64,000 nt of DNA, from positions 25,501 through 89,500 of the forward strand of contig CAMZBI010000001.1 in assembly GCA_947304585.1 (NCBI GenBank). The letters run 5' to 3'. The notes below the pieces were generated by a model. The model saw only the letters and a list, made by a program, of their open reading frames with translations, was not told where the DNA came from and searched no databases. Source of the stretch: an uncultured Clostridia bacterium (lineage in GTDB: Bacteria; Bacillota; Clostridia; UBA1212). Positions 3,359-52,201 of the stretch are shown in pieces. How positions within the stretch are numbered: the stretch's first letter is position 1; each line of letters opens with the position of its first letter. A program made the position numbers and the translations under genes.

Positions 3359-3399
3359 ATGCTGCTCCTGTTAAAATTTACCTATTTTTTCGATAAAAC

Positions 3400-4230: not shown

Positions 4231-4278
4231 GATAATCCTCCGACTGTTGTTCGTTTTTGATCTCATTTTCAAGATCAC

Positions 4279-4560: not shown

Positions 4561-4581
4561 ATTCTCGCTAAGGAGCACTCC

Positions 4582-25039: not shown

Positions 25040-25378
25040 CATGCACTTTGCATCGCTGCGCTTTTTTGTTTTTGATGATTTCATAAACCCGCACTTAGCT
25101 GCGGGGCGGTAATCTTTGAAATCGCTTTTGCCCAAAAGGCAGGAGCGGCAAACCAAATATTTTGCCAATATATTTCCGGGGAAACGCAGCCGGATTTCGG
25201 ACAGCTGCGACCGGCCCGGATAGTTTCTACCATGACGCCGAATGTCACGACTATTGGGAAACCCCGTTTCAAGCGATCGAATTGCCGGAGCGGGACGTGT
25301 TGGCAAAAACAGACCCCTTAAAAGGTCTGCTTTTTGTTTGCAGTATACACACGTTATATTCAATATTTGGAGGAAATT

Positions 25379-26569
25379 ATGAAAAGAATTATTGCGATCA
25401 TCGTTGCAATCATTGCCGTATTCGCTTTCGCAGCCTGCGGCCCCACAGAGAAACATGACGTTAAAATCGGTGTGATCTGTCTCCACGACGAGAACTCCAC
25501 CTACGACGCCAACTTCATCAACGCCATCAAAGCAGTCCAGAAATCTCTCGGACTCTCTGACAGCCAGGTCATCATCAGAACCAACGTTGACGAGTCCATC
25601 GACTGCTACAACGCAGCAGCCGAGATGGTCGACGCAGGCTGCAACATCGTTTTTGCAGACAGCTTCGGTCACGAGGACTTCATGATCCAGGCAGCTCAGG
25701 AATTCCCGAACGTTCAGTTCTGCCACGCTACCGGAACCAAGGCTAAAACAGCCGGTCTTTCCAACTTCCACAACGCATTCGCTTCCATCTATGAAGGCCG
25801 TTACCTCGCAGGTATCGCTGCCGGCATGAAGCTCAACGAAATGATCGAGAGCGGCAAGATCACAGCTGACCAGGCCAAGATCGGTTACGTCGGTGCATGG
25901 CCCTATGCAGAAGTTAAATCCGGTTACACCTCCTTCTTCCTCGGCGCAAGATCTGTTTGCCAGAGCGCAACAATGAAGGTCGTTTTCACAATGTCCTGGT
26001 TCGATATCGCCAAAGAGAAAGAGTCCGCTGAGAAACTGATCAACGACGGTTGCGTCCTCATCAGCCAGCACGCTGACTCCGAAGGTGCTCCTAAGGCTTG
26101 CGAAAAAGCAGGTGTTCCGAACATTGCCTACAACATCGACACCGGCGACCTCGGCCCCAACACAGCCATCATCTCCTCGAAGATCGACTGGGAGCCTTAC
26201 TTCAAGCTCATCATCGATGCAGTTGCCAACGGCACAGCTATCCCCACCGACTACTGCGGTGACTTCTCCACCGGTTCCGTTGCTCTTACCGAACTCCACG
26301 AGAACGTTGCAGCAGCAGGCACAAAAGCCGCTATCGAAGCTGCAAAAGCAAAACTGATCTCCGGCGAGATCAAAGTTTTCGACACCAGCAAGTTCACAGT
26401 TGAAGGAAAGACTCTTACCGAATACATTGCCGACGTTATCGACAACGGCGACTATGTTCCCGAGACCAACGTTATCCACGACGGTTACTTCGACGAGTCC
26501 AACGCAAAAGACTTCAGATCTGCTCCTTACTTTGATCTCACCATTGACGGTATCACTGTAGAGCAATAA
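25379..26569 (+). CDS. BMP-family (PnrA/Med-like) ABC substrate-binding lipoprotein
   Basis: Lipobox FAACG after MKRIIAIIVAIIAV; BMP family fold; GGAGG RBS. Confidence 0.85.
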   Translation: MKRIIAIIVAIIAVFAFAACGPTEKHDVKIGVICLHDENSTYDANFINAIKAVQKSLGLSDSQVIIRTNVDESIDCYNAAAEMVDAGCNIVFADSFGHEDFMIQAAQEFPNVQFCHATGTKAKTAGLSNFHNAFASIYEGRYLAGIAAGMKLNEMIESGKITADQAKIGYVGAWPYAEVKSGYTSFFLGARSVCQSATMKVVFTMSWFDIAKEKESAEKLINDGCVLISQHADSEGAPKACEKAGVPNIAYNIDTGDLGPNTAIISSKIDWEPYFKLIIDAVANGTAIPTDYCGDFSTGSVALTELHENVAAAGTKAAIEAAKAKLISGEIKVFDTSKFTVEGKTLTEYIADVIDNGDYVPETNVIHDGYFDESNAKDFRSAPYFDLTIDGITVEQ

Positions 26570-31897: not shown

Positions 31898-31926
31898 TTG
31901 ACACAAACGCTTCAATATGATACCAT
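31898..31926 (+). promoter_or_regulatory. putative promoter of tRNA-Ala
   Basis: TTGACA-17 bp-TACCAT, about 55 nt upstream of the tRNA. Confidence 0.4.
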
Positions 31927-31983
31927 CTCATCCGCACGGTTGGGAGTTATCTCGACAGACTGCGCAAAGGCTGAAGAAAATAC

Positions 31984-32056
31984 GGGCCTATAGCTCAGTT
32001 GGGAGAGCGCTGCGTTCGCAACGCAGAGGTCATGGGTTCGAATCCCACTAGGTCCA
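31984..32056 (+). tRNA. tRNA-Ala (anticodon CGC)
   Basis: Manual cloverleaf: acceptor GGGCCTA/TAGGTCC with the G3:U70 Ala identity pair, D-arm GCTC-AGTTGGGA-GAGC, anticodon loop TTCGCAA, T-loop TTCGAAT; no encoded CCA. Confidence 0.85.
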
Positions 32057-32415
32057 CAAGACAGAATCAGGGGGGGTAGCCGTCGAGGTTACCCCCCTGA
32101 TTCTGTCTTGAAACAATAGCGTTGGATTCGAACCCGAGGCCCCCGCAAAATCGTCAGATATATTAAATATGGGGTCCCCGTAAAATCGTTAGATTTTGCG
32201 GGGAAGAGGAGCCACAGCGACGCAAACGGAGACTTTCAAGAGAGAAAGAGAGGAAGTTTCTTGAAAGTCGGAGTCCACGTTGCTTGTGGCGACGTGGAGC
32301 CGCAGCGGAGCGATTGAAGTCTTCCAACAAAGGAGAAAAAAAGAAAACCGTATTAAAACAAGAAATAACGGTTTGTTGCCGACTGAATGATGAAACTTCT
32401 GCCGGCTTTTTTATG
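32057..32415 (+). repeat. structured modular repeat, copy A (abuts tRNA-Ala; ends in terminator)
   Basis: 17-bp hairpin immediately after the tRNA; GGGATTCGAACCC; helix CCCCGCAAAATC…GATTTTGCGGGG; GAGGAGCC; GACTTTCAAGA…TCTTGAAAGTC hairpin; terminator TGCCGACTGA…TCAGCCGGCTTTTTT. Confidence 0.7.
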
Positions 32416-32516
32416 CAAAAGCAAACTTTTTGTGGCAAGACAAGACGAAATGAGTTTGGTACAATTTGCAATGTAAAAAATAGCCGGCATTTTTAAGACG
32501 GGAGGTGATTCCGCAA

Positions 32517-33005
32517 ATGAACACAGCTGAAAAAATCATAGCGCTCAGAGCTGAGAGAGGCATTTCGCAGCAGGAACTTGCTGACGCAGTTTTTGTTTCA
32601 CGATCTCTCGTGTCAATGTGGGAGGCGGGAACACGCATTCCGGACAGTTTGAGCGTTGAGAAAATGGCTGCGTTGTTCAATGTAAGTGAGGAGGAGATTT
32701 TGAGCGATAGGAAATACGCTTTTGCGTCGTCGCTTGAGAGGAAACTCATTGGCGATGAGATTGCGGAGTTTACCGATGTTGACAGTTCACCGGGTGACAA
32801 GGAACAGGTAAAAAAGATAATGAACGGGTTCCTTCAAAGCATTGGTGGCGTTGACCGCGAGTTGTTTATGAGTCGATACTTCGAAATGAAAACATGCAAA
32901 GCTATCTCAGAGGAAACGCATATGAACGTTTCTACAGTCAGGTGGAGATTGTCCAAACTGAGAAAGAAGCTTGTGCTTTACGCGAAAAAAGGAGGTAAAA
33001 AATGA
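32517..33005 (+). CDS. XRE-HTH + sigma-70 region 4 fusion regulator (ECF-like)
   Basis: N-terminal Cro/C1 HTH (…RGISQQELADAVFVSRSLVSMWEAG…); C-terminal sigma region 4.2-like (…RELFMSRYFEMKTCKAISEETHMNVSTVRWRLSKLRKKL). GGAGGTG RBS. Confidence 0.65.
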   Translation: MNTAEKIIALRAERGISQQELADAVFVSRSLVSMWEAGTRIPDSLSVEKMAALFNVSEEEILSDRKYAFASSLERKLIGDEIAEFTDVDSSPGDKEQVKKIMNGFLQSIGGVDRELFMSRYFEMKTCKAISEETHMNVSTVRWRLSKLRKKLVLYAKKGGKK

Positions 33006-35233
33006 ACGAAAAAGACTTTAGGGAGGCTTTGTCTGAGATTGGAAATGACGTCGATGCGCCAATTTCGGGCGACGCAGTGATAAAAAATAAAAGTAAATTC
33101 AGAAACATTGTGATCATATCTGCCGCGGCGGCAATCGTGCTGACTTTTGCGGTCATTGCCGCTGTTATTATCGGTACGATCGGATCGAATAATCAAAACA
33201 TAAGCGGGGGAGGGCCTTCTGACAAGGTCCTTTTGGTGAATACTCCTTCGCCTGGAGGTATTGACAAGACCGAAGAACCCGGCAATAAAGCAAACCACGG
33301 GGCAACGTCCTCGCCGACCGCAGACCCGACTTCAGCTCCCACAAATCCGCCAATTTCTCAGCCCACTGAGACTCCTGATGGACCTCAAGGGACTCGGGAG
33401 CCTTATTACGTTGAGCCTTTCTGGCTTAAGGGGGAGTATTTGACGGTCAAAAAGCTTGGCTACGGCGGCTCCTCAAACATCGTTTCCTTTGGCGAGGGGA
33501 GTGTCAGCGCAAAGATTATCCCCACAACGGTATTCGGCGAGCATGAGAACTGCGGGAAGGTCTACTATAACACGGAGACCAATGAGATATATTGCGTTTA
33601 CCACGAGTTTCTGGAGGCCTCGGGCGTGACCGTGCCGGAGGGTTATTACATCTATTATGAGCAGGACACGGTGCGGGACGATCTGATGTGCATAAAGATT
33701 GTTGATCCGGGTGACCTTGGCACCACGGACCTGTGGCTTTTTGACATGGACGACCGCCTGGCAAAGAGAGTGGGGCTTCCGGAGGGATGCGGCAGCTACG
33801 AGGATATAAAGATCTATACGCCGGGCCTCTGCAACGGGAAGCTTGCCCTTTGCGTCAGCGATGACATTGGCGATTGCTACATAAGTATTTTTAACAGCGG
33901 AACAGGTGAATATCAGGACTTCGGCAAGGACGCAGGCCTTAAGTCTCTGACCTGCACCTTCCTGACGGAGACTGTGCTTGAGGTGTCGACTCCCGACGGG
34001 TATTACGCCTGGAACACCGCCAATTCTAGAATGTTCAAGCTTATCGGTGAGCACAATATCGTGTTTGACGGGCTCCTTTATTCCGTGAAGAACTGGTGGG
34101 GAGGCTACCATAAGGACGTGGAAGTGGCGGTATATAACGTCGAGACCGGGCTCCTGAGGAAGGGAAGCGGCGGCGTGTTGGCATTGGCGGTGATGGACGA
34201 CGGATCCTACGGCGTGCTTTCTATTGACGACGAGACCGGAAATGAGACGGTCATCATGGATCATTATACGGAGGGCGCTACTGCCTGGAGCAAAGATCAT
34301 GCCTACTTTTACGCATATTCCGCCAAGGACAACAGAGTCCTCTGCTATTCGGTCTCCGCTTGCCAATGGACTTTTGCAGACGTTGCTCCGATAACAAAAG
34401 ATCCGGTACTCGTCGAAGGGACTCTTTATGCGGTGTTCAACAGCTGCAGGCTTGCCGTCGACGACAACTGCAGGGAGGTTACGCTTTACCACACAAGAAA
34501 ACTGGAAGAAATACCTGACCTTCCGGATTTTGAGGAGCAGAGGGTTGACTCCCCTTACTGGGACGACTATCGCGACATTGCCGCAAATAACCGTTTCTCG
34601 GAAACTGACCGCTGGTATGTCACCTACAAAGAGGACAGGGTCAGCACGGGATGGATCGGACATGACGTCGCCAACATGGATGCCCTGCGGGATATCATAC
34701 TGCTTTGCCTGGAGACCCGGGGCGAAAGACTAAAATACGATTTGACTGAAAGCGATTACGACTTCTTTAAAATGAGTTTCAGCTACAGTACATTCAGCAT
34801 GGAGTTTTTTGAAAAAGACGGCAGATACTACTTGAATCTCAATGCCAACAGACAGCCTCCAATGGGTTTCGTGAGTGAATTCAGCGAGATACCGGAAGAG
34901 ACTTTCCTAAGGGTCATGGATATGCACAGCCCTTACGTTCAGTTCACATGGATATCGGTATCAGCCCGAATCGACGATGTTTCAGATCCAAATTGCAAGG
35001 TGGTACTTGATGAGAGCGAGAAGAGTTATTTGAAGGAGTTAATATCTTCCGGCAATTGGAGGCAAAACGATTTTCAGGGCGTTACGTATTTCAGGTACGC
35101 ATGCTTTTTCATTGACGGTGATGTGTGGTTCTGTTATGAGCCCAACATGAAAATCTTGCAGGATATCATGCACTCAACACATATAGAGCTAACAGACGAG
35201 GAGTGCGCCGCCATCGACATAATGCTGAATTGA
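33002..35233 (+). CDS. single-pass membrane anti-sigma-like protein with large extracytoplasmic domain
   Basis: 4-nt overlap with the regulator gene; short cytoplasmic N-terminus, one TM helix (IVIISAAAAIVLTFAVIAAVIIG), about 680-aa exterior domain. Confidence 0.5.
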   Translation: MNEKDFREALSEIGNDVDAPISGDAVIKNKSKFRNIVIISAAAAIVLTFAVIAAVIIGTIGSNNQNISGGGPSDKVLLVNTPSPGGIDKTEEPGNKANHGATSSPTADPTSAPTNPPISQPTETPDGPQGTREPYYVEPFWLKGEYLTVKKLGYGGSSNIVSFGEGSVSAKIIPTTVFGEHENCGKVYYNTETNEIYCVYHEFLEASGVTVPEGYYIYYEQDTVRDDLMCIKIVDPGDLGTTDLWLFDMDDRLAKRVGLPEGCGSYEDIKIYTPGLCNGKLALCVSDDIGDCYISIFNSGTGEYQDFGKDAGLKSLTCTFLTETVLEVSTPDGYYAWNTANSRMFKLIGEHNIVFDGLLYSVKNWWGGYHKDVEVAVYNVETGLLRKGSGGVLALAVMDDGSYGVLSIDDETGNETVIMDHYTEGATAWSKDHAYFYAYSAKDNRVLCYSVSACQWTFADVAPITKDPVLVEGTLYAVFNSCRLAVDDNCREVTLYHTRKLEEIPDLPDFEEQRVDSPYWDDYRDIAANNRFSETDRWYVTYKEDRVSTGWIGHDVANMDALRDIILLCLETRGERLKYDLTESDYDFFKMSFSYSTFSMEFFEKDGRYYLNLNANRQPPMGFVSEFSEIPEETFLRVMDMHSPYVQFTWISVSARIDDVSDPNCKVVLDESEKSYLKELISSGNWRQNDFQGVTYFRYACFFIDGDVWFCYEPNMKILQDIMHSTHIELTDEECAAIDIMLN

Positions 35234-35282
35234 CGTGCAGGGTTCAAAAGGACAGGTCGGCGGATGTGACGGATTGAACAGC

Positions 35283-35752
35283 GCATCTATTAAGGATGCA
35301 CTGTAGGGTAAAAACGGCCCACTGCATCTAAACCGACCACACACCACACAGACGCAGGGAGTAGCCTCCACGGCTACTCCCTGTGTCTGTAATAGAAACT
35401 ACCTGGTGGGATTCGAACCGGGGCCCCCGCAAAGATTTGGCGAAAAGGCTTTAATAACGCCAATTCTTTGTGGGGAAAAGGAGGCGCAGAGATGCAAACA
35501 AAGTGATTCAAGCGAATTTGTTCTTAAAATGCTTAGATCACGCAGTCGGCGTCTCTTGCGGCGACGCATTCGTACGCTATTGAGGCTTTTCAAACACGGG
35601 TTTCAAAACTGAAAAACAGTCTTTTTTACAGGTTTTTCTAAAGATTTTTTTGCCGAAATCAATGACCGGTTTCCGGGAAATCCGAGAACAGGATCAAGAA
35701 TAACAACGATATGTTCCCGACTGATTGATGAATATTCAGCCGGCTTTTTTTT
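35283..35752 (+). repeat. structured modular repeat, copy B
   Basis: TGCACTGTAGGG…CTGCATCTAAACCGACCACACACCACA; hairpin CAGACGCAGGGAGTAGCC/GGCTACTCCCTGTGTCTG; 18-bp helix CCCCGCAAAGATTTGGCG…CGCCAATTCTTTGTGGGG; AAAGGAGGCGCAGAGATGCAAAC; micro-ORF; terminator. Confidence 0.75.
35529..35612 (+). other. Arg-rich micro-ORF inside repeat copy B (MLRSRSRRLLRRRIRTLLRLFKHGFQN)
   Basis: ATG conserved in copies B, C and D2; coding status uncertain. Confidence 0.25.
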
Positions 35753-35821
35753 ATGCAAAAAAATGAATTGAAGGATTTCACATCGAAGGAACAATTGAAA
35801 ACAATTTCACACTTTGTACAT

Positions 35822-38230
35822 TCACTCAACCGCTTTCTGTTTACCGAAAAGGATAGAGCCAAGAGAAATATAGTCTCCGCGCACATGATCGATCCTGAAC
35901 CTCGCCGAGCGGTCATACTCATATACCATGTATGCGCCGCCGCAATAATCCTTTAAAATTTTCACAGGAGCAATCAGGTTTAAGCTTTTTGCGTCAAACA
36001 TCTCTACCGCGAGGCAGCAGTCCGGAGCATTGGCAGTAAAACGGAGAGCCACAGTATATTTCTGCTTCCGTTTCATCTTAATATCGGCGGTGAAAGACTG
36101 GGCGCAAACGTTATCATAATTTGTGCCGTAGGTTTCAGAGCCGCCGTTTTTGATGTAAATCCCGCGTGACAGGACGATATCTTCAACATATTCCGGAAGC
36201 TTTGATTTAACCATGGAAGAGCAGTCAAAGAAGCCGTCACTGCCGTATTTCTCATTGGCGTCGCGGTCGATGCCTTTGAAGGACGCAGGGTAGCAAAACA
36301 TAGGTGCTCTGTACGTTTTAACCCTTCCGGTATAAGCGGCGCTGAAAGTGTATTCCCCGGCGGAAATGTTTTCATAATAACAAAAATCATCGTCTTCCTT
36401 GTCAAAGGTTGCAGGGGAACCATTCAATTCTATATTTGAAATACGCATTCCTGCCTTGGGGATGGCGACGAGAGCTTCCGTACCTTCGGGTACCGAAACA
36501 TGATGAATTCCTTTTTTTATGTCAAACGAGGCTCTTATTGTGCCGTGAGGCGTAGGCATATCGCCAATGACATTTTTTAACTGAGTGCCCAAATGGGGGA
36601 TAACCGAAAACTTCTCGAAACCCGGTTTGACAGGTTTTATACCCAGTACTTCTGTGCTTAGAAAAGCAAGGACGCCTGCGCTCCAGGGATGAGCAAGACT
36701 TGTATATCCCGCCTGACTGTTCGGCAAGGGACCGTTCTTGTCGATTTCGTCTTTCCAGCCCGGACGAAAAACTTCAAAGAAGCAGGTCCCGCCGTATTCT
36801 ATCTGAGACCCCCAAAGATCAAGGATCGATGATAAAGCATCATCGTATTTACCTGTTTTGGCGAGAGCCTTAAGGATAAAGAACTCGTTGAAGGGAGAAT
36901 AGGATATGCGGTTGGTGCGGTCGTTAAAAAACTTTTTGAACAATTCTTCTCGGACCTTTCCGTCTGCGACACCGGCATTCACCGAGTCCGCAAAAGCATG
37001 GATGCCGCAGGACTTGTGCCATAAAGGATCGCTGCTTAAAAGAATACCCTTTTCCTCAGCATATCTCGTGCAACGCCGGGCGTAGTCCTGCCGCCCGAGC
37101 AAATTGAATATATCGGCATATTTTTTGAAACATTCAATGGAAAGAAACTTATATGAAAGACGGTTCTCGGGTATGTCCGGGTTTTCAAAACCCGCGCCAA
37201 GGCGTTCATCCCAGCCGAAAAATGAGAGCGGATAGTTTTTGTCAAAGATTTCATTGGCGTGTTCCAGTCTTTTAACAGCCTCGTCGATCAAACTCAATAC
37301 GCCTACATTATCTCCGGAAAAATCATAGTAGTCGGCAAGTGAAAGAAGCCAGTACAGTTCAAAGCTTTCTATACCGTTCGGGTGTGCGGAAGTATGTTTC
37401 AGGTTTTCAAGCACAAAGTCATAGTTGGCAAATGCTGCAAGAGAAGCTGCCTGAGCGGTGTAAGCGTCTCCTGTCCACGAATGGCGATCACCGCGGTCAA
37501 TAAGTATTGCCGACATGTAGTCTTTTTTCAAATTGACTCTAACGTCATAGGCAGCCGTGTACCAGATCCGGTTCAGCATCCGATTGTCGCACTCAAATGA
37601 GCCGTAATAGTTGACCGGTTTTACCTGGCAGACAAGTCTTACGCCGGTGATATGAAATTCCTTTTTAAGTCCTTGTATATGAATGAAACCGAAGCGCACG
37701 CCCTCATAAAGTTCCGGGTTAAGAACAAGCCTGTAAACGGTATCTGACACTTTTACGGGGTGCCTTGTCTTTTTTGATGACTGAACTCCCCGGTTAACGA
37801 TCTCGGGACTTGTGTACTCACTGACGCTTAACACAATGTTTTCCGGATCGCCAAGGTCAGGACTCATTATCTCAAGCCACGCCGCAAATTCCGAACCGAA
37901 GTCGATCATTACGGTACCATCGCCTTTTACGGTTAAATCTGTATCACCGGAAAGCAACGATTCAAGGTTCAGGAAACTGTTATTGTCCTCCGTTTCATAC
38001 TTTACCGGATAGGCGAAGAAAACCCGCAGCTCGTTTCCTGCGCTCACGTCGTCAAAGCGATAAGACAGAAGAGGATCAGGGGAAAAAGCAGCACCGGCGT
38101 TTTTTACCAATGTCCCGCCCGATATGTGTTTATAAGGTTCTTCGATATCAATATTGGCGATATTGATTCTGAATCTGTCGGAATGATCGTTGCACATGAA
38201 ACTCTGATTATCAATTTCCCGCAAAAGCAT
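35822..38230 (-). CDS. six-hairpin glycoside hydrolase, alpha-L-rhamnosidase-like (GH78-like)
   Basis: 802-aa ORF; central (alpha/alpha)6-type segment (…RHSWTGDAYTAQAASLAAFANYDF…). Exact start uncertain; family assignment by resemblance only. Confidence 0.5.
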   Translation of the reverse strand: MLLREIDNQSFMCNDHSDRFRINIANIDIEEPYKHISGGTLVKNAGAAFSPDPLLSYRFDDVSAGNELRVFFAYPVKYETEDNNSFLNLESLLSGDTDLTVKGDGTVMIDFGSEFAAWLEIMSPDLGDPENIVLSVSEYTSPEIVNRGVQSSKKTRHPVKVSDTVYRLVLNPELYEGVRFGFIHIQGLKKEFHITGVRLVCQVKPVNYYGSFECDNRMLNRIWYTAAYDVRVNLKKDYMSAILIDRGDRHSWTGDAYTAQAASLAAFANYDFVLENLKHTSAHPNGIESFELYWLLSLADYYDFSGDNVGVLSLIDEAVKRLEHANEIFDKNYPLSFFGWDERLGAGFENPDIPENRLSYKFLSIECFKKYADIFNLLGRQDYARRCTRYAEEKGILLSSDPLWHKSCGIHAFADSVNAGVADGKVREELFKKFFNDRTNRISYSPFNEFFILKALAKTGKYDDALSSILDLWGSQIEYGGTCFFEVFRPGWKDEIDKNGPLPNSQAGYTSLAHPWSAGVLAFLSTEVLGIKPVKPGFEKFSVIPHLGTQLKNVIGDMPTPHGTIRASFDIKKGIHHVSVPEGTEALVAIPKAGMRISNIELNGSPATFDKEDDDFCYYENISAGEYTFSAAYTGRVKTYRAPMFCYPASFKGIDRDANEKYGSDGFFDCSSMVKSKLPEYVEDIVLSRGIYIKNGGSETYGTNYDNVCAQSFTADIKMKRKQKYTVALRFTANAPDCCLAVEMFDAKSLNLIAPVKILKDYCGGAYMVYEYDRSARFRIDHVRGDYISLGSILFGKQKAVE

Positions 38231-38233
38231 TTC

Positions 38234-39307
38234 TCATCGGTCTATAACAGCTTTAATAACTCCGCCGCCGATAACCAAACCTCTTTCATCATAAAAAACG
38301 GCGGACTGCCCCTGTGCGGCAGCCCTCACGGGCTCGTCAAATTCAACTCTTACAGTGTCGTTTCTCGCTTTTTCGATAAATGCGGGCTGACCTTTGTGCC
38401 CGTATCTGATCTTGACAATGCATCTTACTTTTTTACTGTCCTCAAGGCTCTCAATACTCATAAAGTTCAGATTATTGCAAAGTATTTCCCGATTGTAGAG
38501 AGAGTCACTCTTTCCGATAACGACTTCGTTTTTTTCCGGGAGTATTTCCTTCACATAGCCCGGATATCCCAGGGAAATACCGAGCCCTTTTCTTTGGCCC
38601 ACAGTGTAATATATGATTCCCTTATGCCTTCCCAGCACATTTCCGTCAGGATCGACAAAATTGCCTTCTTTTGCACAGCCTGTTTTGGCTGCAATAAAGT
38701 CCCCGTAGCTCCCGCCGGTCACAAAGCAAATCTCCTGAGAATCCGGCTTTGAAGCAACGGCAATTTCCGCCTCCTTTGCGATACTTCTGACTTCGTCTTT
38801 ACTTAAACCGCCAAGAGGCATCAGCGTCGCTGCAAGCTGTTCCTGGGTCAGCCTGTAAAGCATGTAAGTCTGGTCCTTTTCGGTATGGCAGGCTGTCTTC
38901 ACCGTATACCTTCCGTTCTCAAGCTTTTCAACAGAAGCGTAGTGCCCGGTGGCAATATGATCTGCCCCGAAAACCTTGGCGTAAAACAGAAGCTTCTCCC
39001 ATTTAACATACCTATTGCAAAAAACACAGGGGTTGGGTGTACGGCCGGAAAGGTATTCGCCGACAAAAGGCTCTACTATATGTCTCCTAAAATCCGACGT
39101 ACAGTTTATGGGATAATAAGGTATGCCGATGCTTCTTGCGGCGTCTCTTGCATCGTCGATGTCGCAACAACGTCCTTCGTCACCGTCTTCAGTCTGCCAG
39201 ACCCTCAGGGTCACGCCAATGACATCATATCCCTCTTTTTTTAGGAGATATGCCGCTACGGCGCTGTCGACTCCTCCCGACATTCCCACAACAACCTTAT
39301 TACCCAT
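38234..39307 (-). CDS. mnmA: tRNA 2-thiouridine(34) synthase
   Basis: PP-loop VVVGMSGGVDSAVAA and conserved cysteines. Confidence 0.9.
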   Translation of the reverse strand: MGNKVVVGMSGGVDSAVAAYLLKKEGYDVIGVTLRVWQTEDGDEGRCCDIDDARDAARSIGIPYYPINCTSDFRRHIVEPFVGEYLSGRTPNPCVFCNRYVKWEKLLFYAKVFGADHIATGHYASVEKLENGRYTVKTACHTEKDQTYMLYRLTQEQLAATLMPLGGLSKDEVRSIAKEAEIAVASKPDSQEICFVTGGSYGDFIAAKTGCAKEGNFVDPDGNVLGRHKGIIYYTVGQRKGLGISLGYPGYVKEILPEKNEVVIGKSDSLYNREILCNNLNFMSIESLEDSKKVRCIVKIRYGHKGQPAFIEKARNDTVRVEFDEPVRAAAQGQSAVFYDERGLVIGGGVIKAVIDR

Positions 39308-39572
39308 AATAATTTACTGCCCGGAACACATTGCTATAAAAGAAATGCGATCATTCAACTTTTTTGAGTGGTTTAAAGTTTTTGTCACCATCCCTGAAAA
39401 AAGATTACGGTAGATTATAAACCTTTCTGCCTACTATGTCAATGGGTATATTCTGCTGTGCCGGGATCAATGTATCAACACGGATTGGTATGGAAAAGCA
39501 TTGGCGGCTTTGATATCTTCCTGTGACGCATATTTCACCAAGGTAACGCTGCAGTTAGGTCCGTAGGAGAGC

Positions 39573-40266
39573 GACTCTATTTAGTTTTCAAGTCATGTTA
39601 TCTTGTACACTGTATCTATTTAGTCTGTACAGTGCATCTTTTAGGGATGTACAGTAGGCCAAAAACGGCCCTCTGCATCTAAATCGACCACACACCACAA
39701 GGTGAACCCGGGTCCCCGAAAGTGCTCGCGCTTTTGGGGAGAGGAGCCGGGGCGGCGGGAATGGAGTCTTTCAAGTGAGGATCTATAAACTTCTTGAAAG
39801 ACGGAATCGTCGGCGTTCGCGGCGACGAAAATAGATGCACACGCAAAAATCGGCTATTTTTAGCCGATTGGAGCGGCTCGAAAGGCCAAAAATTTTAGTG
39901 CGAAATAAAAAGATGCAAAAGCCTATTCCCGAGGGGAATCCATAGGGGCCCCCGAAACTCGCTTTCACACATTGGCCCGTCACTAGTCCGCTTTCGCGGA
40001 AATCGTTCCGGCTCCAATGTGTGGCGCGAGATGGGCCTATTTATGCGCTTTTGGGGAGAAGGAGCCGCAGAGACGCAAACGAAGTGGTCCAAGCGAATAC
40101 AATCTTATAATGCTTGAAACACGCAGTCGGCGTCTCTTGCGGCGACGCATTCGTACGCTATTAAAGCCTTACAACAAGAGTCTTTAAGGGAAAAAGAGAG
40201 CTATATTAAAACAAGAAATAACGGTTTGTTGACGACTGAGTGATGAAACTTCAGCCGGCTTTTTAG
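39573..40266 (+). repeat. structured modular repeat, copy D (composite, two tandem module sets)
   Basis: ACTGTATCTATTTAG and TGTACAGT(×2) block; CCCCGAAAGTGC…GCGCTTTTGGGG; GTCTTTCAAG…CTTGAAAGAC; AATCGGCTA-TTTTT-TAGCCGATT; second helix CCCCCGAAA…CTTTTGGGG enclosing CACACATTGG…CCAATGTGTG; micro-ORF; terminator. Confidence 0.75.
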
Positions 40267-40409
40267 ATCCGACAAACATCCAATCAATGTTTCTTTGTTT
40301 TGTAACGGTTGACTTTCTGCCATTTAAAAATCACGCAATCTATGCTATACTGTCATTACTAAATTTGAAATGCCAAACTGGCAGAGCAAGTTAAGATTGG
40401 AGCCTTGCT

Positions 40410-41357
40410 ATGAGCAATGATAAAACGAAACTCATTCTCGCGAATACCAATGAGCAGGGCACAGATGCCCTCAATATTCAAAGCTTAATTTACGTTTTTC
40501 GTGATAAACAGGTCATGCTTGACAGTGACTTGGCTTATTTGTATAAAGTTGAGACCGGATATCTCAACAGAGCAGTAAAACGCAACATCAGCCGATTTCC
40601 AGAGGATTTTTGTTTTCAACTTACAATAGAAGAATATGCAATCTTGAAATGCCAAATTGGCATAGCAAGTTCGGAGTCAGCTAATGGATATGGCGGCAGG
40701 AGGACTCGGCCATATGTGTTTACAGAGCAAGGCATTTCGATGCTTGCAAGTGTTTTGCATAGTGATGTCGCCGTTAGTGTAAGCATCCGGATTATGAGAG
40801 CTTTTGTGGAGCTGCGACATTTCATTTCCGGCAATGCGCTGCTGTTTGAGCGAATAAGTTCCGTTGAACTTCGTCAACTGGAATACCAAAAAGAGGTTGA
40901 TGAAAAGTTTGAGAAGGTTTTTGAATATATTTCGGATCATCAAGAGGCTTCGCAGAAGGTCTTTTTCAATGGGCAGATTTATGATGCTTTCAGCCTGATT
41001 TCCAGTTTGATTAAGAAGGCTTCAACAGATATTATCCTGATTGATGGATACGTAGACACGGGAACCCTTGATTTGCTCTCAAAGAAACGGTCAGGCGTTG
41101 GCGTCTCTGTTTATACCTCGCAACACGGATGCCGACTCACTAATGCTGAAGTTACTGCATTTAATGCCCAGTATCCCGCTCTCTCTGTGTCATATACCAG
41201 CGTTTTTCATGATCGCTTTTTAATTTTGGATCACCGGAAAGGATATCACATTGGAGCCTCAATTAAAGATGCCGGGGGAAAGTGTTTTGCTATTTCCAAG
41301 TTGGAGGATTCACAGATTATACAAGACATCATCAATAGGCTATCGCATTCAAACTGA
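40410..41357 (+). CDS. ORF6N (KilA-N-related) domain protein with C-terminal extension
   Basis: …VMLDSDLAYLYKVETGYLNRAVKRNISRFPEDFCFQLT… matches the ORF6N domain; low-GC gene. Confidence 0.65.
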   Translation: MSNDKTKLILANTNEQGTDALNIQSLIYVFRDKQVMLDSDLAYLYKVETGYLNRAVKRNISRFPEDFCFQLTIEEYAILKCQIGIASSESANGYGGRRTRPYVFTEQGISMLASVLHSDVAVSVSIRIMRAFVELRHFISGNALLFERISSVELRQLEYQKEVDEKFEKVFEYISDHQEASQKVFFNGQIYDAFSLISSLIKKASTDIILIDGYVDTGTLDLLSKKRSGVGVSVYTSQHGCRLTNAEVTAFNAQYPALSVSYTSVFHDRFLILDHRKGYHIGASIKDAGGKCFAISKLEDSQIIQDIINRLSHSN

Positions 41358-41379
41358 CTGCACGAAAGGCTGAAATCTC

Positions 41380-42726
41380 ATGGGACAATCATTTGAACGA
41401 ATACTTGCTCTAAACAAGGAAACAACAGGCTTGTCGTTGGTTCCCGGAATGCGTAAAGCTGCTGCAGAAATCGGATATTCAGAAAGCACGGAGGGTATTG
41501 GCATTTCCGTTCGTATAAGGCGTCATGAAGACAGCGAGTGGTACGAAATCGAGTCGCCTCTGCTTGGATCCACCGCAGAAACAGCAGAGCCTTTTTTGAG
41601 GGCAATTTCCCGCGAAGTGCATACACCGGTGCTTTTCCTTTGTTGTGTCGACAGTGATTTTGTTTATTGCCGGTTGATAGACTCTACTACCGAAATCGAT
41701 ACAGGCGCCTGCTTAGGAGAACCGTATGTTGACGTCGGTGAACCGGATTACAATGCGTGGGCCGGAGCATGTAAAAAGAAATGGAAGTGCACTGCCGAAC
41801 AGTTTCGTGAAGTGTTCGAGGGCGATTATGTCTTCGCAGAAGAGGGGCTGGAACCGCTTGCTGCGCTGATGCATTTCTCACCGGTTGTTGTAAATGTGTC
41901 TGAAGATGAGCCTGCCGACAGGATAATATGGTTTTCACCTTCTGGAGATGGGACCAACGCCAGGTCTCCGCAAACGTTGCTCGAAAAAGCTGCGGATTTC
42001 ATGGAAACAGAGTATGCGGACAAATTGGTCGAAAAAGGCTTTCAACGGTTTAAAAACTCTCCGCTTCGGTGGCATAAGCTCGTTGGCGACGAGGGCAACG
42101 AGGTGCTGCAGAGCATTGTTATCACTTCGCATTACGATTGGTATGAGATCTTTTACGGAGCACAATCGCTGTATTGTCCGGTTGTCTTCTCCGACAAGTA
42201 TTATCCGCATCACGACAATGATCTTTACTGGCTGGAAGCTCGTTTTGAGTATGTATGTAATGTCGACAAAGGTCTGTTCTACATTGAAGAGGAGAATCCT
42301 GAACTTGGCAAATGCGAAAGAATGTTGCCTTTTGACGACCCGCAGCAGTTCCGTCCCATACTGGAAAGATTGATCTTTCCTGCGCTCGACCGCATCGTTG
42401 ATCTTACGACATGCCACGATGCATATATGCAAACGCGCCTGGTCAAACTCTATAAGGACAATCCAAAGATTAATATTGATCATTCAAGGCTTTGGCTCGA
42501 GGCATTTCTCTCCGGCGATGAAGCATTGACCAAAAAACATTTTGCGCTTGTTAAACAACTGTATGAAAATCAAAAACAAATAGCACGAAATCTAAACATA
42601 GAATGTGAAGAGCCGCTGGTCGAAGCCTTTGGCAAAGGCGATATGGTCCTGTTCAGAGAATTATTGGACAAGACATATGCCACCAATATGAAAAATCTCA
42701 GGAACGCAGGGGTCGTTCAACGGTGA
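41380..42726 (+). CDS. hypothetical protein (448 aa, no recognised domain)
   Basis: Intact ORF 22 nt downstream of the ORF6N gene; low GC. Confidence 0.4.
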   Translation: MGQSFERILALNKETTGLSLVPGMRKAAAEIGYSESTEGIGISVRIRRHEDSEWYEIESPLLGSTAETAEPFLRAISREVHTPVLFLCCVDSDFVYCRLIDSTTEIDTGACLGEPYVDVGEPDYNAWAGACKKKWKCTAEQFREVFEGDYVFAEEGLEPLAALMHFSPVVVNVSEDEPADRIIWFSPSGDGTNARSPQTLLEKAADFMETEYADKLVEKGFQRFKNSPLRWHKLVGDEGNEVLQSIVITSHYDWYEIFYGAQSLYCPVVFSDKYYPHHDNDLYWLEARFEYVCNVDKGLFYIEEENPELGKCERMLPFDDPQQFRPILERLIFPALDRIVDLTTCHDAYMQTRLVKLYKDNPKINIDHSRLWLEAFLSGDEALTKKHFALVKQLYENQKQIARNLNIECEEPLVEAFGKGDMVLFRELLDKTYATNMKNLRNAGVVQR

Positions 42727-42755
42727 ACCTGGACTGAGCTTTTATAATCCAATCT

Positions 42756-43254
42756 CATATGCATCTATTTGGTCTGAACACTGTATCTATTTAGGATGTA
42801 CAGTAGGGTAAAAACGGGCCTCTGCATCTAAATCGACCACACACCACACACAGAATCAAGGGGTAGCCTTCGCGGTTACCCCTTGATTCTGTGTTGAAAC
42901 AATAGCGTGGGATTCGAACCCGGGGCCCCCGAAAGATTTGGCGAAAAGGCTTTAATAACGCCAATTCTTTGTGGGGATAAGGAGCCGCAGAGACGCAAAC
43001 GAAGTGATTCAAGCGAATTTATTCATAAAATGCTTGGATCACGAAGTCGGCGGCTCTTGCGGCGACGCATTCGTACGCTATTGAGGCTTTTCAAACACGG
43101 GTTTTAAGACTGAAAAACAGTCTTTTTTACAGGTTTTTCAAAAGATTTTTTACCGAAATCAACGACCGGTTTCCGGGAAATCCGAGACCGGGATCAAGAC
43201 AAATAACAACGATCTGTTGCCGACTGAGTGATGAAAATTCAGCCGGCTTTTTGG
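42756..43254 (+). repeat. structured modular repeat, copy C
   Basis: Near-identical architecture to copy B, but the 5' hairpin is ACAGAATCAAGGGGTAGCC-TTCGC-GGTTACCCCTTGATTCTGT. Confidence 0.75.
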
Positions 43255-49588: not shown

Positions 49589-49629
49589 CCGTACTCGTTT
49601 GAATACGGGAAGAGTCTTCCTTCAGCGCC

Positions 49630-49740
49630 GCACCTGTTTGGTCTGCATACAGTATCTTTTTATATGCACACGCAGAAATCGGCTATTTTTAGCCGATTGG
49701 AGCGGCTTGGAAAGCGATTTTTTGAGCAATGAAATAAAAA
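49630..49740 (+). repeat. partial copy (E) of the structured repeat
   Basis: TTTGGTCTGCATACAGTATC…GCACACGCAGAAATCGGCTATTTTTAGCCGATTGGAGCGGCTTGGAAAG matches the internal segment of copy D. Confidence 0.55.
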
Positions 49741-49819
49741 GAGACAAATGCCAATTATGGCGTTTTTGTGCTGTCGATTGCGGATCGGTAGGCATTGGCG
49801 CCAATGCTGCCGGATCGCA

Positions 49820-51238: not shown

Positions 51239-51717
51239 TTTTTTGACTCCTTTATGTACCTTGCAAGTTTGGCTCTTGTCTTTGAGAGAATGCTCCTGAC
51301 GTGATTCTCGCGAATGCCGTACGCTTCAGCGATCTCGGCAGTGTTCTTCAGGTGATAGTAACGATTAATAAAAATATCAGCGTCCTTTTCCGGGATGCTC
51401 CTTAGAAAACGGTCCAAAACAACTGCCAGATCTGCGTCGCTGATTTCGATTCCGGCAAGGTTGCCGTCAAAGAGTTCTTTGAAAACAAGGTCGGTTGTAT
51501 CAACTATTTCGTCAACTTTGGCGTTAAATACTTCTGCTATTTTTTCGATCATACGATAATTCGGACGCCTCGTTCCGTTTTCCCATTTTGAGACCAGATC
51601 TCTTGAGACAAACAAACTGTCGGCAAGCACCTGCTGAGACATACCGTTTTTATTGCGCAATTCACTTATTTTTTTGCCGATATTCAGCGAAAACACCTCC
51701 TTTGACCATGATCGCAT
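51235..51717 (-). CDS. XRE-HTH + sigma-70 region 4 fusion regulator (paralog of 32517..33005)
   Basis: Same two-domain architecture (…GMSQQVLADSLFVSRDLVSKWENG… and …DIFINRYYHLKNTAEIAEAYGIRENHVRSILSKTRAKL). Confidence 0.65.
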   Translation of the reverse strand: MRSWSKEVFSLNIGKKISELRNKNGMSQQVLADSLFVSRDLVSKWENGTRRPNYRMIEKIAEVFNAKVDEIVDTTDLVFKELFDGNLAGIEISDADLAVVLDRFLRSIPEKDADIFINRYYHLKNTAEIAEAYGIRENHVRSILSKTRAKLARYIKESKK

Positions 51718-51900
51718 GTAAATTATACCTCATTGACGGTAACATAATAAGGGACAAAACGCACCCGGACCGGAAAGATTGTTTTCGTAAGCTTATTCCC
51801 CGAATTTTTTATGATTTTGGGAAATAATCCCGGTACTCTGATGATCCGAAGGTGCTCTCTTGCCAATGGGACAGGGAAGAAGTAAGCGGGACTCTTTACG

Positions 51901-52085
51901 GAGTTATGTACAGTACCCGCGAAAACCCTTAAAAACCCGGGAAAATACCGCCAAGAAATCTAAAACGACCACACCCCCCAAGGATAAAGACTCCTTCGCG
52001 GGGGCTTTTTCGTGGCGTTGTACAAGCGCTAAGAGGCCCCCGAAAGCGCTTGCACTTTTGGGAGGAGAAAAGCCGCAACGACGTT
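51901..52085 (+). repeat. partial copy (F) of the structured repeat, upstream of the AAA ATPase gene
   Basis: ATGTACAGTA…TCTAAAACGACCACAC; GACTCC-TTCGC-GGGGGTC hairpin; GAGGCCCCCGAAAGCGCTTGCACTTTTGGGAGGAG. Confidence 0.65.
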
Positions 52086-52201
52086 TTTGGATATGAATCA
52101 AATTCACTTGACAAATTGCGATTATGTATATATAATGCCAAAAACAAATTGCGATTACGTCGTGATTTGACCCAAAAGAAATTGCGACAGGAGATTACGC
52201 C

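Follow-up and report, generated by a model that had tools for sequence, protein, structure and literature searches.

The sequence directly behind the tRNA-Ala(CGC) gene in the 64,000-nucleotide stretch of uncultured Clostridia DNA analysed here (the window) is best explained, with about even confidence on our part, as the first, degenerate unit of a modular, single-strand-structured repeat family, which belongs to a narrow clade of rumen Clostridia and is anchored at the 3' ends of tRNA genes. We call this unit copy A. In the explanation that we favor, arrays of such units would be gained and lost through recombination, homologous or site-specific, between repeated copies of the tRNA end. Their plus strand would be transcribed from the tRNA promoter by read-through of the hairpins. 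The same tRNA loci double as landing sites for cargo cassettes. Recombination between repeated modules would also have removed most cassette left ends and the tRNA-end copy of copy A, and the enzyme that moves the cassettes would be encoded outside the window and the related loci.

Copy A and its counterparts in the window

The tRNA gene (31984-32056, plus strand) is genuine: ARAGORN finds it, and no second tRNA anywhere in the window, and Rfam scores it at 66.1 bits for RF00005 against a gathering score of 29. The G3:U70 pair and the discriminator A32056 can be read directly from the sequence, and CAA follows the discriminator, so that no CCA is encoded, as the original prediction held. Its promoter was also recognized correctly. 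A promoter-like site, TTGACA-17-TACCAT with an upstream TG (31898-31926, plus strand), matches the consensus at 10 of 12 positions and would give the tRNA a leader of about 50 nt.

A terminator-like hairpin with a weak U-tract, defined by its MFE fold, a terminator scan and comparison with relatives, occupies 32057-32110 on the plus strand. It starts at the base right after the discriminator, where it had been placed before; the 17 bp then assigned to it are the G+C-rich core of a stem that comprises 24 pairs with one unpaired position in the MFE fold. The hairpin is homologous to another at 42849-42893 and corresponds in position to canonical terminators behind the same tRNA in relatives, where the hairpins carry 6-U tracts; the tail here is GAUUCUGUCU. 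By inspection, the flank of the tRNA (ACA, hairpin and the T-arm complement described below) closely resembles, over about 95 nt, the flank behind a cassette right end that terminates at 42845. The terminator of copy A is not the first one downstream of the tRNA, as had been claimed, since a simple terminator consensus scan already flags 32070-32098 within this hairpin. A conserved terminator does exist at the 3' end of copy A (about 32376-32415) and is kept in five copies (family D3).

These features bear directly on how copy A might be expressed. A promoter scan detected no promoter-like site from the hairpin to 32437, so copy A, if transcribed at all, would be transcribed from the tRNA promoter. 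Such co-transcription would need read-through of a terminator-like hairpin whose homologues are canonical tRNA terminators, and the poor U-tract makes read-through plausible. The proposal that copy A shares the promoter and terminator of the tRNA therefore stands for the promoter, in that no other was found, and for the terminator only in read-through transcripts.

Copy A lies entirely on the plus strand. Behind the hairpin it carries a reverse complement of the tRNA T-arm, termed rcT (GTTGGATTCGAACCCGA, 32121-32137), which carries one change, G to T at its second base, inside the segment that matches in relatives. A P hairpin follows (CCCCGCAAAAUC...GAUUUUGCGGGG with a variable insert, 32141-32203), as defined by copy alignment and fold, and then a type-1 rod hairpin (GGAGCC...GGCGACG, 32208-32294), supported by covariation and by 91.5 bits with covariance model R1. 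The truncated start of a further, type-3-like body (GGAGCCGCAGCGGAGCGA..., 32295-32337) was recognized from the T3 motif and by comparison with L020. The copy closes with a 74-nt terminator module of family D3, common to five copies, that ends GCCGACUGA..UCAGCCGGC plus a U-run (32338-32415). Copy A folds far better than shuffled sequences (z = -9.4).

The window contains five full repeat copies, copy A included, all on the plus strand and scoring 76-101 bits with the covariance model, in agreement with the expectation that the element is repeated. In copy B (35260-35750, plus strand; assigned from repeat families and a rod hairpin of 89.3 bits), a cassette right end of 22-bp repeats, which ends CGACCACACACC at 35345, continues through ACA, a hairpin (35349-35389) and rcT (35406-35420) into the P hairpin, the rod hairpin (35480-35566), an extension and the terminator module. 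Copy C (39611-40264, plus strand) has two bodies, of 76.4 and 97 bits with the covariance model: a right end (to 39696), ACA and the C1 body with its rod hairpin (39743-39827) precede a cassette left-end fragment (39828-39930, TAGATGCACACGCAAAAATCGGC...), the C2 body (rod hairpin 40061-40147) and the terminator module (40191-40264). Copy D (42760-43252, plus strand) has the highest-scoring rod hairpin, at 100.7 bits (42981-43067). Its right end, with three 22-bp repeats at 42760, 42782 and 42823, stops at 42845 and is followed by ACA, the hairpin at 42849-42893, rcT (42907-42921) and the P hairpin; behind the rod hairpin come the 3' strand of the closing helix (43068-43086) and the terminator module (43179-43252). 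Further remnants, also on the plus strand, are more decayed. Copy E (53538-53772; families D3, D7 and D10) retains a degenerate right end, hairpin, P hairpin, truncated body and terminator module; copy F (51950-52090; D7) a degenerate right end (..AAAACGACCACACCCCCC), hairpin, and partial P hairpin and body; and at 49620-49750 a right-end-like fragment is joined to a left-end fragment, itself a copy of 39832-39886 (family D9).

The motif GGATTCGAACCC is the exact reverse complement of the tRNA T-arm, as had been noticed, and occurs three times on the plus strand, at 32124, 35409 (one mismatch) and 42910, against 0.46 matches expected by chance. The repeats that bear it do not fold as tRNAs, again as foreseen: ARAGORN and Rfam find no tRNA or tmRNA fold in them on either strand and, in relatives likewise, only bona fide tRNAs. 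A degenerate tRNA or tmRNA on the minus strand was rejected on these negative results and because the G-U pattern and covariance-model scores favor the plus strand. The 89-nt "leader" of copies B-D was also tried as a tRNA-like module or promoter, but a cassette right end that bears repeats accounts for it better. A short ORF behind a GGAGG-like motif was dismissed: only a few copies have an ATG, the reading frame is not kept from copy to copy, and the sequence forms a covarying stem.

Intact units in relatives and their fold

The family was recovered from about 21 true loci belonging to one clade, a thin sample biased by a search pattern for type-1 bodies, within which it is confined to a narrow clade of rumen Clostridia. 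High-GC chance hits of the genome and metagenome pattern scans (L002, L003, L007, L012, L014, L016 and L022) were discarded. Among the true loci, 11 of 14 in genomes and 6 of 7 in metagenomes have the element directly 3' of a co-oriented tRNA, and the tRNAs concerned are Ala-CGC, Ala-GGC, His-GTG, Ser-GGA, Gln-CTG and Lys-CTT.

An intact unit measures about 195-245 nt, lies on the same strand as its tRNA, and is present singly or in tandem, up to five together. It consists, in order, of a terminator hairpin, a short stretch that complements the T-arm, the acceptor end or both in the adjoining tRNA, a conserved body, and a copy of the tRNA end. The type-1 body combines the P hairpin with an imperfect rod hairpin of about 87 nt; body types 2 and 3 are also present, and bodies can be nested. 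The 3' copy reproduces, in direct orientation, the last 19-21 nt of the adjoining tRNA, from mid-T-loop through CCA, and such copies, each differing at no more than 2 of 16 positions, bound 21 units. In every array the 5' segment and 3' copy fit the adjoining tRNA, as in the Ser array (GGGGGGATTCGAACTCC with AATCCCCCCATCTCCGCCA) and the His array (GTGGGACTCGAACCC with AGTCCCACTAGCCACCCCA). In relatives, direct repeats of the tRNA 3' end define the intact family members. The T-arm-complementary motif, for its part, is not incidental: it matches whichever tRNA its unit follows and is predicted to pair with the tRNA-end copy, which closes the unit.

Within the window no second copy of the tRNA 3' end occurs, even with up to 3 mismatches allowed, which bears out the earlier statement that such a repeat is absent. 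In copy A the truncated type-3-like body (32295-32337) occupies the place that the tRNA 3'-end copy holds in intact units. Judged by this comparison, copy A is a degenerate, truncated member of the modular family that has lost its own tRNA-end repeat.

The units clearly share a predicted fold. Because the 5' segment pairs with the tRNA-end copy, each unit folds as a three-way junction whose closing helix contains the tRNA tail, and MFE folds of Ser, Lys, Ala-GGC and Ala-CGC units, each folded independently, give this same closed junction. In the rod hairpin (26 sequences by 26 pairs), 94.4% of cells are paired, against 30-49% in slid-partner controls; 11 pairs show compensatory changes (56 cells), and none of 500 shuffles reaches the observed values. 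By manual count, a 17-sequence alignment has about 29 G-U cells on the plus strand against 5 C-A cells, and the covariance model that gives 76-101 bits on the plus strand gives 29-38 on the minus strand. Covariation beyond shuffled and slid controls, together with this strand asymmetry, is the pattern generally expected of a structured RNA, and indicates a repeat that folds as a single strand in the orientation of the tRNA. Conservation of a fold on one strand would also be compatible with a role as single-stranded DNA.

The family is apparently undescribed. In the window and seven related loci no Rfam 15 family covers the units at gathering or permissive E-values, the only Rfam hits in the window and its relatives being tRNAs and one purine riboswitch. 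A blastn search with copy D against phage and plasmid collections returned no match, a scan of viral contigs for the type-1 and type-2 patterns gave 0 hits, and a full-text literature search of limited coverage yielded no description of such units.

The cassette array and its ends

The stretch from the tRNA to about 56.6 kb had been described as a low-GC, tRNA-associated genomic island. Its composition is indeed distinct, though heterogeneous: GC over 32057-56600 is 0.460, compared with 0.532 on the upstream and 0.526 on the downstream side, and the GC3 of genes is 0.31-0.65 inside against 0.60-0.78 upstream, far from the uniformity that would have spoken against an island. Nor is the block conserved among relatives. 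Four related contigs carry tRNA-Ala(CGC) (L006, L013, L020 and L028), and the downstream content is different in all four; the window shares its upstream TmcAL-type gene with L006, L013 and L020, and L028 has too little upstream sequence for this comparison. The region is thus foreign-looking and variable, as proposed, but appears to be built of tandem cassettes between repeat modules and not bounded by one pair of ends.

We infer that about seven cassettes, three with intact right ends, are stacked behind the tRNA in this low-GC array (32057-56600, plus strand), which was delimited by composition and cassette ends. The presumed segments are 32057-35348, 35349-39699, 39700-42848, 42849-~49660, ~49661-51980, 51981-53566 and 53567-~56600, the distal limit of about 56.6 kb being set by composition only. 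Cargo includes candidate defence genes (PDC-S05, E 8e-124; PDC-S01, E 4e-97). One inferred cassette contains mnmA, a tRNA-modification gene of core type, which counts against the cassette reading. Exact-sequence look-ups of window proteins (MnmA, the XRE-type protein and, from either of two possible starts, the TmcAL-type protein) returned no record.

In related contigs the cassette left end (GGTGTGYAGACTAAATAGATGCA) is an inverted repeat of about 23 bp that abuts the tRNA or the CCA of a tRNA-end copy and has its own terminator; four of five left ends abut ..CCA-A. The right end carries 22-bp direct repeats (TGCATCTAWWTNGNCTGNACAC) that end ..CACACC and are followed by ACCA or ACA and a terminator hairpin, a tRNA-end-like junction. 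Because the right end recreates such a junction, the next cassette could land there. The terminal 22-bp site has eight matches as right ends, six of them followed by ACA or ACCA; of the other two, one continues with T and a hairpin and the eighth is a left end, matched in the opposite orientation. Of the six ACA/ACCA right ends, five continue into a hairpin and the one at 39696 into the C1 body. At the three intact ends in the window, the 22-bp repeats are likewise followed by ACA and, apart from the end at 39696, a hairpin, like the tRNA's own 3' flank. In a manual alignment the left end GGTGTGCAGACTAAATAGATGCA shares 17 of 23 positions with the right end in reverse complement and 20 of 23 with the inner 22-bp repeat; the cassettes thus have the terminal inverted repeats expected of a TIR-bounded transposon. 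The possible target-site duplication, ACCA or ACA on both sides in L028 and at window-type junctions, is only 3-4 bp, and no window element has both ends intact.

Comparisons between genomes suggest that the cassettes are mobile. Modules share 92-98% identity between genomes in which the housekeeping genes alongside share about 69-75%, and the cassette at 32363-35390 is 94-97% identical in L023 (where the context is a tRNA-Lys), L025 and L028. Units have been gained and lost among L009, L010, L021, L024 and L027, and between L018 and L019.

By analogy, the cassettes may be akin to Tn7-like transposons. Those elements have asymmetric ends with several transposase-binding repeats of about 22 bp, terminal inverted repeats and a fixed site beside a conserved gene, and the type V-K CRISPR-associated Tn7-like transposons home to tRNA genes. 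The cassettes resemble them in a right end with three direct repeats of about 22 bp (TGCATCTAWWT...), a left end with an inverted copy and a further subterminal site, and insertion at a fixed point, where a tRNA or a copy of its end stops. They differ in that they contain no tnsA, tnsB, tnsC, tniQ or DDE gene, the apparent duplication is 3-4 bp and not 5 bp, and there is no CRISPR array here.

What the units may be

A first, improbable alternative is that the units are small-RNA genes that mimic the tRNA acceptor end and act in trans. They would be processed by the tRNA machinery (RNase P, RNase Z, exonucleases and the CCA-adding enzyme), with the scaffold presenting the last 19-21 nt in a closing helix that ends in CCA. 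They might then serve as decoys or sponges for enzymes or toxins that recognize tRNA 3' ends, or as guides that mark cassette landing sites. The strong, plus-strand-specific covariation is consistent with this, as is the retention of the closing helix with wholly different sequences and registers in Ser, His, Lys, Ala-GGC and Ala-CGC units; in Lys units the T-stem and acceptor parts are paired and only CCA is free. Each unit has its own terminator hairpin behind it, cassettes land exactly at the CCA junctions of tRNAs or tRNA-end copies, and the neighboring cargo is of defence type. As in tmRNA, viral 3' tRNA-like structures and YrlA, the 3' end of the unit is a tRNA acceptor strand with NCCA held in a helix with the RNA 5' end. 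Unlike those RNAs, the units have no analogue of the T-loop or D-loop, ARAGORN and Rfam see no tRNA-like or tmRNA-like gene in them, and the partner in the helix is an inverted copy instead of a tRNA 5' strand. Since that strand is a Watson-Crick inverted copy, with A opposite U70, the units do not have the G3:U70 identity pair, which argues against mimicry. Moreover, CCA is base-paired in Ala-GGC units and Ser and Ala-CGC units leave the acceptor strand unpaired, so no single mimic geometry is conserved. No partner protein consistently adjoins the units, and neither a scan of the window nor inspection of spacers in relatives revealed a convincing promoter for them. As the hairpins look like efficient terminators in relatives, the steady-state level of unit RNA could be very low.

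We give the same low weight to the possibility that ordinary integrase-mediated events at tRNA genes left the units behind as scars, either attP-only remnants or minimal, gene-less elements mobilizable in cis by a tyrosine integrase supplied in trans. In that case the tRNA-end copy would be a displaced attR fragment and the tandem arrays, of up to five units, would be successive integrations. The tRNA 3' direct repeat begins within the T-loop, at positions 56-58, which is the typical crossover region of tRNA-targeting integrases. A complete tRNA is regenerated, a terminator comes with each unit, and in L018 compared with L019 units were lost exactly between two tRNA-end copies. Precedent comes from tycheposon islands, which show tandem elements with partial tRNAs between them and also degenerate remnants (bioRxiv 10.1101/2020.12.28.424599). 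Like Islander-type islands and the tycheposons of Prochlorococcus, the arrays are anchored at the 3' end of a tRNA that is left intact, direct copies of the tRNA 3' part bound inserted units (here in relatives), and tandem accretion, degenerate remnants, accessory or defence cargo and content that varies between relatives are all evident.

The enzyme expected of such a process is nevertheless missing from the surroundings. The original prediction that the window lacks an integrase agrees with our Pfam and NCBIfam searches of all larger ORFs at 28-58 kb, which detected neither an integrase nor a transposase in the cassettes. Around the arrays no recombinase was found in sequence of up to 8 kb at genome loci and up to about 15 kb at metagenome loci, with neighbors profiled in seven loci; the lone exception in the Pfam/NCBIfam/PADLOC recombinase search is an unrelated DDE insertion sequence adjoining the array in L026. 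The region does have the atypical composition and variable presence among relatives of an integrase-type island, with no integrase gene at either end and no distal tRNA 3' repeat in the window. Direct repeats of the tRNA 3' segment bound only the units of about 200 nt in relatives; in the window, the cassettes are bounded by 22-bp repeat ends and not by tRNA fragments. In addition, the units are gene-less, strand-specific compensatory changes and many G-U pairs are not expected of attP arms, and the inverted T-arm/acceptor copy has no role in integration of this kind.

It is also conceivable, at still lower probability, that the units form a new class of tRNA-end-presenting RNAs. As an address label, the scaffold could show the last 20 or so nucleotides of the tRNA together with their complement, for RNA-guided insertion by some enzyme at the CCA/terminator junction. 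As a decoy, it could be bait for factors that attack or recognize tRNA 3' ends in a defence hotspot. The omega RNAs of TnpB and IscB and the bridge RNA of IS110 offer a parallel, in that a conserved scaffold precedes some 20 nt that repeat the neighboring target DNA exactly, and two segments, rcT and the tRNA-end copy, could each pair with a different strand of one target. The differences are that domain searches of the neighbors found no such gene adjoining the units, the closing helix ties up half of what would be the guide, and there is no Rfam match to an omega RNA.

Least probable is the original model of one tRNA-associated island in which copy A is a structured RNA using the tRNA promoter and a terminator at 32390-32415: promoter, tRNA and hairpin are truly adjacent, no other promoter lies upstream of copy A, the poor U-tract allows for read-through and GC is lower over 32-56.6 kb, but the hairpin resembles a terminator and has canonical terminators as homologues, the region is pieced together from several cassettes that have their own ends, and copy A is truncated relative to intact units.

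A modular, tRNA-anchored repeat family remains the explanation that we favor, and it leaves two features without a reason: the inverted copy of the tRNA end in the 5' segment, and the different hairpins carried by identical bodies in L018 and L019. In its architecture the family recalls REP/BIME, BOX, Correia and ERIC elements, which are also mosaics of few modules with nesting and with hairpins kept by compensatory changes, sited at gene ends or terminators in multiple copies per genome. Unlike these, the units are tied to tRNA 3' ends and carry sequence of the adjoining tRNA, they are very few per genome, and no RAYT-type transposase was seen; they are also far larger and more elaborate than REP sequences.

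In summary, tRNA genes are classic landing sites of mobile DNA, and the known route is an integrase that leaves a partial copy of the tRNA. Here, direct copies of the tRNA tail are attached to gene-less units of about 200 nt with a one-strand fold and an inverted tRNA segment, and the units mark loci where cargo cassettes, including candidate phage-defence genes, appear to stack with no visible recombinase. Should the units be no more than scars or selfish repeats, they would still be useful markers of hypervariable defence hotspots in rumen Clostridia, and they call for caution in annotation, because fragments in them look like tRNA without being tRNAs. If they are working RNAs, they would represent a new use of the tRNA's own sequence, for insertion targeting or imitation of the tRNA end, and would provide a testable link among tRNA 3' ends, terminators and the assembly of genomic islands.

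The window tRNA and its repeat copies

The only tRNA in the window is tRNA-Ala(CGC) (31984-32056, plus strand; ARAGORN and Rfam concordant), which carries the G3:U70 pair and leaves CCA unencoded, since its discriminator, A32056, is followed by CAA. At 31898-31926 there is a promoter-like site, TTGACA-17-TACCAT, preceded by a TG. In the MFE fold a long hairpin of 24 pairs and one unpaired position (32057-32110) begins at the base directly after the discriminator. It opens copy A, the first of the window repeat copies, and is followed by GTTGGATTCGAACCC, which, save for a G-to-T change at its second base, is reverse-complementary to the tRNA T-arm, and then by a type-1 body consisting of a second hairpin (CCCCGCAAAAUC...GAUUUUGCGGGG) and an imperfect 87-nt rod hairpin (GGAGCC...GGCGACG, 32208-32294). 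The truncated start of a further body comes next, and a 74-nt module with a terminator at its end (32338-32415) closes the copy. The whole 359 nt of copy A folds far more strongly than shuffled sequence (z = -9.4). The tRNA, promoter, hairpin and repeat reported in the original prediction are all real by these analyses.

Combined repeat finding, motif searches and covariance modelling showed that the rod hairpin is present in five full copies, every one on the plus strand (32208-32294, 35480-35566, 39743-39827, 40061-40147 and 42981-43067). Shorter derivatives of the repeat lie at 51950-52090 and 53538-53772, and 49620-49750 holds a fragment. The copies matched no Rfam family, E-values up to 5 included, and blastn against phage and plasmid collections gave no match to the repeat. 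Near the window end, in a stretch of 40% GC, stand three direct repeats of about 87 nt (core GTGGTAGATT..AATCACGGAGGCGAACAAACAGTTGCC; 62452-62538, 63204-63290 and 63306-63392, plus strand), a family distinct from the tRNA-linked repeats.

Intact units in rumen Clostridia

A degenerate pattern for the rod hairpin retrieved 14 true loci from species-representative genomes and a further 7 from metagenomes; viral contigs yielded no loci. All 14 genome loci are in Clostridia MAGs of rumen origin (labelled Ruminococcus sp. RUG12790 and RUG13779, Clostridia bacterium RGIG10266 and RGIG3519, Mageeibacillus sp. UBA1212 and UBA1243, Bacillota RUI406). In 17 of the 21 loci a co-oriented tRNA stands immediately 5' of the element, and the tRNAs heading units are Ala-CGC, Ala-GGC, His-GTG, Ser-GGA, Gln-CTG and Lys-CTT. 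A single plan, constant across the mapped arrays, runs outward from a tRNA with encoded CCA: a canonical bidirectional terminator in the form of a hairpin flanked by A-rich and U-rich sequence; 10-17 nt of spacer; a segment reverse-complementary to the adjacent tRNA's T-arm (in Lys and Ala-GGC units the acceptor strand is complemented too, or in its place); a body; a direct copy of the adjacent tRNA's 3' end, starting at T-loop position 56-58 and ending with CCA; and the next hairpin, from which the series repeats. Such tRNA-end copies bound 21 units, of 193-243 nt when simple and 308-328 nt when nested, and the longest array has five units after one tRNA (Lys, contig L023). Copy A has a truncated body and the terminator module where the tRNA-end copy would stand, that copy being absent from it; by this comparison of sequences it is a decayed unit of the tRNA-linked family. 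Neither Rfam nor the literature searched yielded a description of such units.

Three body types recur, and they can be nested. In L018, L019 and L026 a small hairpin of the type-2 body has given way to a type-1 body, and a body like C1 (the first of two in copy C) apparently sits within a cassette left end, flanked by AGGTG and ATAGATGCA (window 39700-39840; L013 at ~925-935; L020 at ~6800-6810), so the two-hairpin body behaves as an insertable module. Bodies and tRNA ends are also combined in different ways: A-like bodies are paired with the ends of Ala-CGC and Lys tRNAs, and C1-like bodies with those of Gln, His and Lys tRNAs.

Units appear to turn over at the same tRNA locus. The window shares an upstream TmcAL-type gene with L006, L013 and L020 (~69-75% nucleotide identity), and the modules downstream of tRNA-Ala(CGC) in related contigs are 92-98% identical to the window copies in another order: a C2-like unit and an ORF6N gene in L006, a type-2 unit, D-like body and XRE-type module in L013, and a type-3 unit and A-like body in L020. 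In L028, whose sequence starts too near the tRNA for the upstream gene to be compared, a cassette left end directly follows tRNA-Ala(CGC). The tRNA-Ser(GGA) arrays of L009, L010, L021, L024 and L027 differ by whole units, and what separates L018 from L019 is a deletion that runs exactly from one tRNA-end copy to another. Downstream of the last hairpin of the L028 array (1650-1700, minus strand), a body tail is followed by AAATCCCGCCGGGTCCGCC, a tRNA-end-like copy mismatched to the tRNA-Ala that heads the array; this non-cognate copy suggests that exchange between tRNA loci may occur.

A plus-strand fold

RNAalifold applied to 17 cores predicted a rod of 26 pairs and the P hairpin of the type-1 body. 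When a fixed structure was applied to 26 distinct cores, 94.4% of cells were paired, with compensatory double changes at 11 pairs (56 cells); none of 500 shuffles reached the observed values, and sliding the partners by one to three columns left 30-49% of cells paired. The 17-sequence alignment holds, by our own count, about 29 G-U cells on the plus strand against 5 C-A cells. G-U is thus frequent where the minus strand would give C-A, which argues for a plus-strand fold, and the covariance model scored the five window copies at 76-101 bits on the plus strand versus 29-38 bits on the minus strand. The unit is, as judged from these comparisons, predicted to fold as a single plus strand.

The MFE folds of whole units from four tRNA contexts are all three-way junctions, closed by a helix in which the tRNA-end copy pairs with the complementary segment on the 5' side. 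As the partner strand, this segment is an inverted copy with Watson-Crick pairs (A faces U70 in Ala-GGC units), and differs from the tRNA 5' strand rather than copying it. In Ser, His and Ala-CGC units the register is confined to the T-stem part, and in Lys and Ala-GGC units it takes in the acceptor part as well. Pairing per se seems to be the feature retained. Under one alternative to our preferred reading of the units as markers of insertion hotspots, they may be functional RNAs that mimic tRNA ends or serve as guides, a reading with which the covarying plus-strand fold is consistent; no single tRNA-like geometry is conserved across units.

If unit RNA is made, it would probably arise by read-through from the tRNA promoter. 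There is no promoter-like site between the long hairpin and 32437, and relatives have too little spacer before their units to accommodate one. Hairpins in relatives have good U-tracts and the window hairpin has the tail GAUUCUGUCU, so read-through may be more plausible in the window than in relatives. A purine riboswitch aptamer with a 30-nt insert in one loop lies at 25146-25273 (plus strand; 39.3 bits, Rfam gathering score 37), upstream of an ORF at 25334-26569.

Cassettes, cargo and the low-GC stretch

Copies B, C and D are each preceded by an 89-nt "leader", best read as a cargo-cassette right end, with three direct repeats of about 22 bp (TGCATCTATTTGGTCTGAACAC, TGTATCTATTTAGGATGTACAG, TGCATCTAAATCGACCACACAC) and the terminus ..CACACC. 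The left end in related contigs, GGTGTG(C/T)AGACTAAATAGATGCA, repeats the 22-bp site in inverted orientation; in four of five cases it directly adjoins the CCA that ends a tRNA or a tRNA-end copy, and it carries its own terminator hairpin next. Of eight matches to the terminal 22-bp site, six are followed by ACCA or ACA; the L023 right end is followed by T and a hairpin instead, and the L026 match belongs to a left end, read on the other strand. A terminator hairpin comes after ACCA or ACA in five of the six, the right end at 39696 running into the C1 body. ACA, the form in the window and L025, is the exact ending of the window's CCA-less tRNA-Ala (GGTCC-ACA-hairpin), and ~95 nt past the right end at 42845 are, by inspection, closely similar to the tRNA-Ala 3' flank. 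We infer that cassettes land at the junction of a tRNA end and a terminator, and that each would rebuild a similar junction on its far side. Recombination between repeated modules may since have removed most left ends in the window, where the only fragments are at 39828-39930 and about 49661, beside three intact and two degenerate right ends.

The units may instead be scars of integrase action. Within the low-GC stretch, and within up to 8 kb (genome loci) or about 15 kb (metagenome loci) around the relatives' arrays, no integrase or transposase was found except in L026, where an IS-type DDE transposase (DDE_Tnp_1 / DDE_Tnp_1_6; 3244-4857, minus strand) directly adjoins the tRNA-Ser array.

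GC is 0.460 inside the low-GC stretch versus 0.532 upstream and 0.526 downstream, and gene GC3 is 0.31 to 0.65 inside versus 0.60 to 0.78 upstream. The single island of the original prediction would account for this composition; the cassette at 32363-35390 (an XRE-sigma70_r4 gene and a 743-aa protein) recurs in three other contigs at 94-97% identity, one of them in a tRNA-Lys context. We infer instead about seven stacked cassettes in 32057-56600, the distal limit being set by composition only. The original prediction correctly recognized a tRNA-associated foreign region and a folded tRNA-linked element, and missed the nature of the repeat.

A two-gene module occurs beside repeat elements in five versions, in each of which a ~160-aa protein with HTH_3 and sigma-70 region 4 domains precedes a 458-1778-aa protein without a family match. 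Two are window cargo (32517-33005 with 33002-35233; and, on the minus strand, 51235-51717 with 49820-51238) and three are in relatives (L013 1430-3821; L001 1483-7294; L026 6195-8020, minus strand); the arrangement resembles, by analogy, a sigma/anti-sigma pair. Other cargo comprises GNAT acetyltransferases, a NAGPA-domain protein, an AraC regulator and, on the opposite strand, a rhamnosidase-like gene and mnmA. The latter, a tRNA 2-thiouridylase gene (38234-39307, minus strand; GC3 0.49), lies between copies B and C; in L015 its homologue adjoins a homologue of the window gene at 17.0-18.9 kb, so the window locus appears rearranged. The cargo also has a tubulin-like gene (Tubulin_2, TubZ-type), whose GC3 of 0.31-0.39 is the lowest in the window. 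It is in two parts on the plus strand, an N-terminal one of 124 aa (54010-54384) and another of 714 aa (54423-56567); it could be frameshifted or a pseudogene, or be organized as two genes.

Taken together, we consider it an evenly balanced proposition that modular, plus-strand-structured units anchored at tRNA 3' ends mark, and probably help build, insertion hotspots, with copy A a degenerate unit and the 24-kb stretch a cassette stack. The nearest precedent is the tycheposon islands, in which tandem elements are separated by partial tRNAs. Two further cargo products, the ORF6N protein (40410-41357) and the AAA_14/DUF4143 ATPase (52202-53530), both encoded on the plus strand, match the PADLOC candidate defence families PDC-S05 (E 8e-124) and PDC-S01 (E 4e-97). 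Similar genes, as judged from N-terminal sequences only, recur beside arrays in L023 and L025, which suggests that the hotspot collects candidate phage-defence genes.
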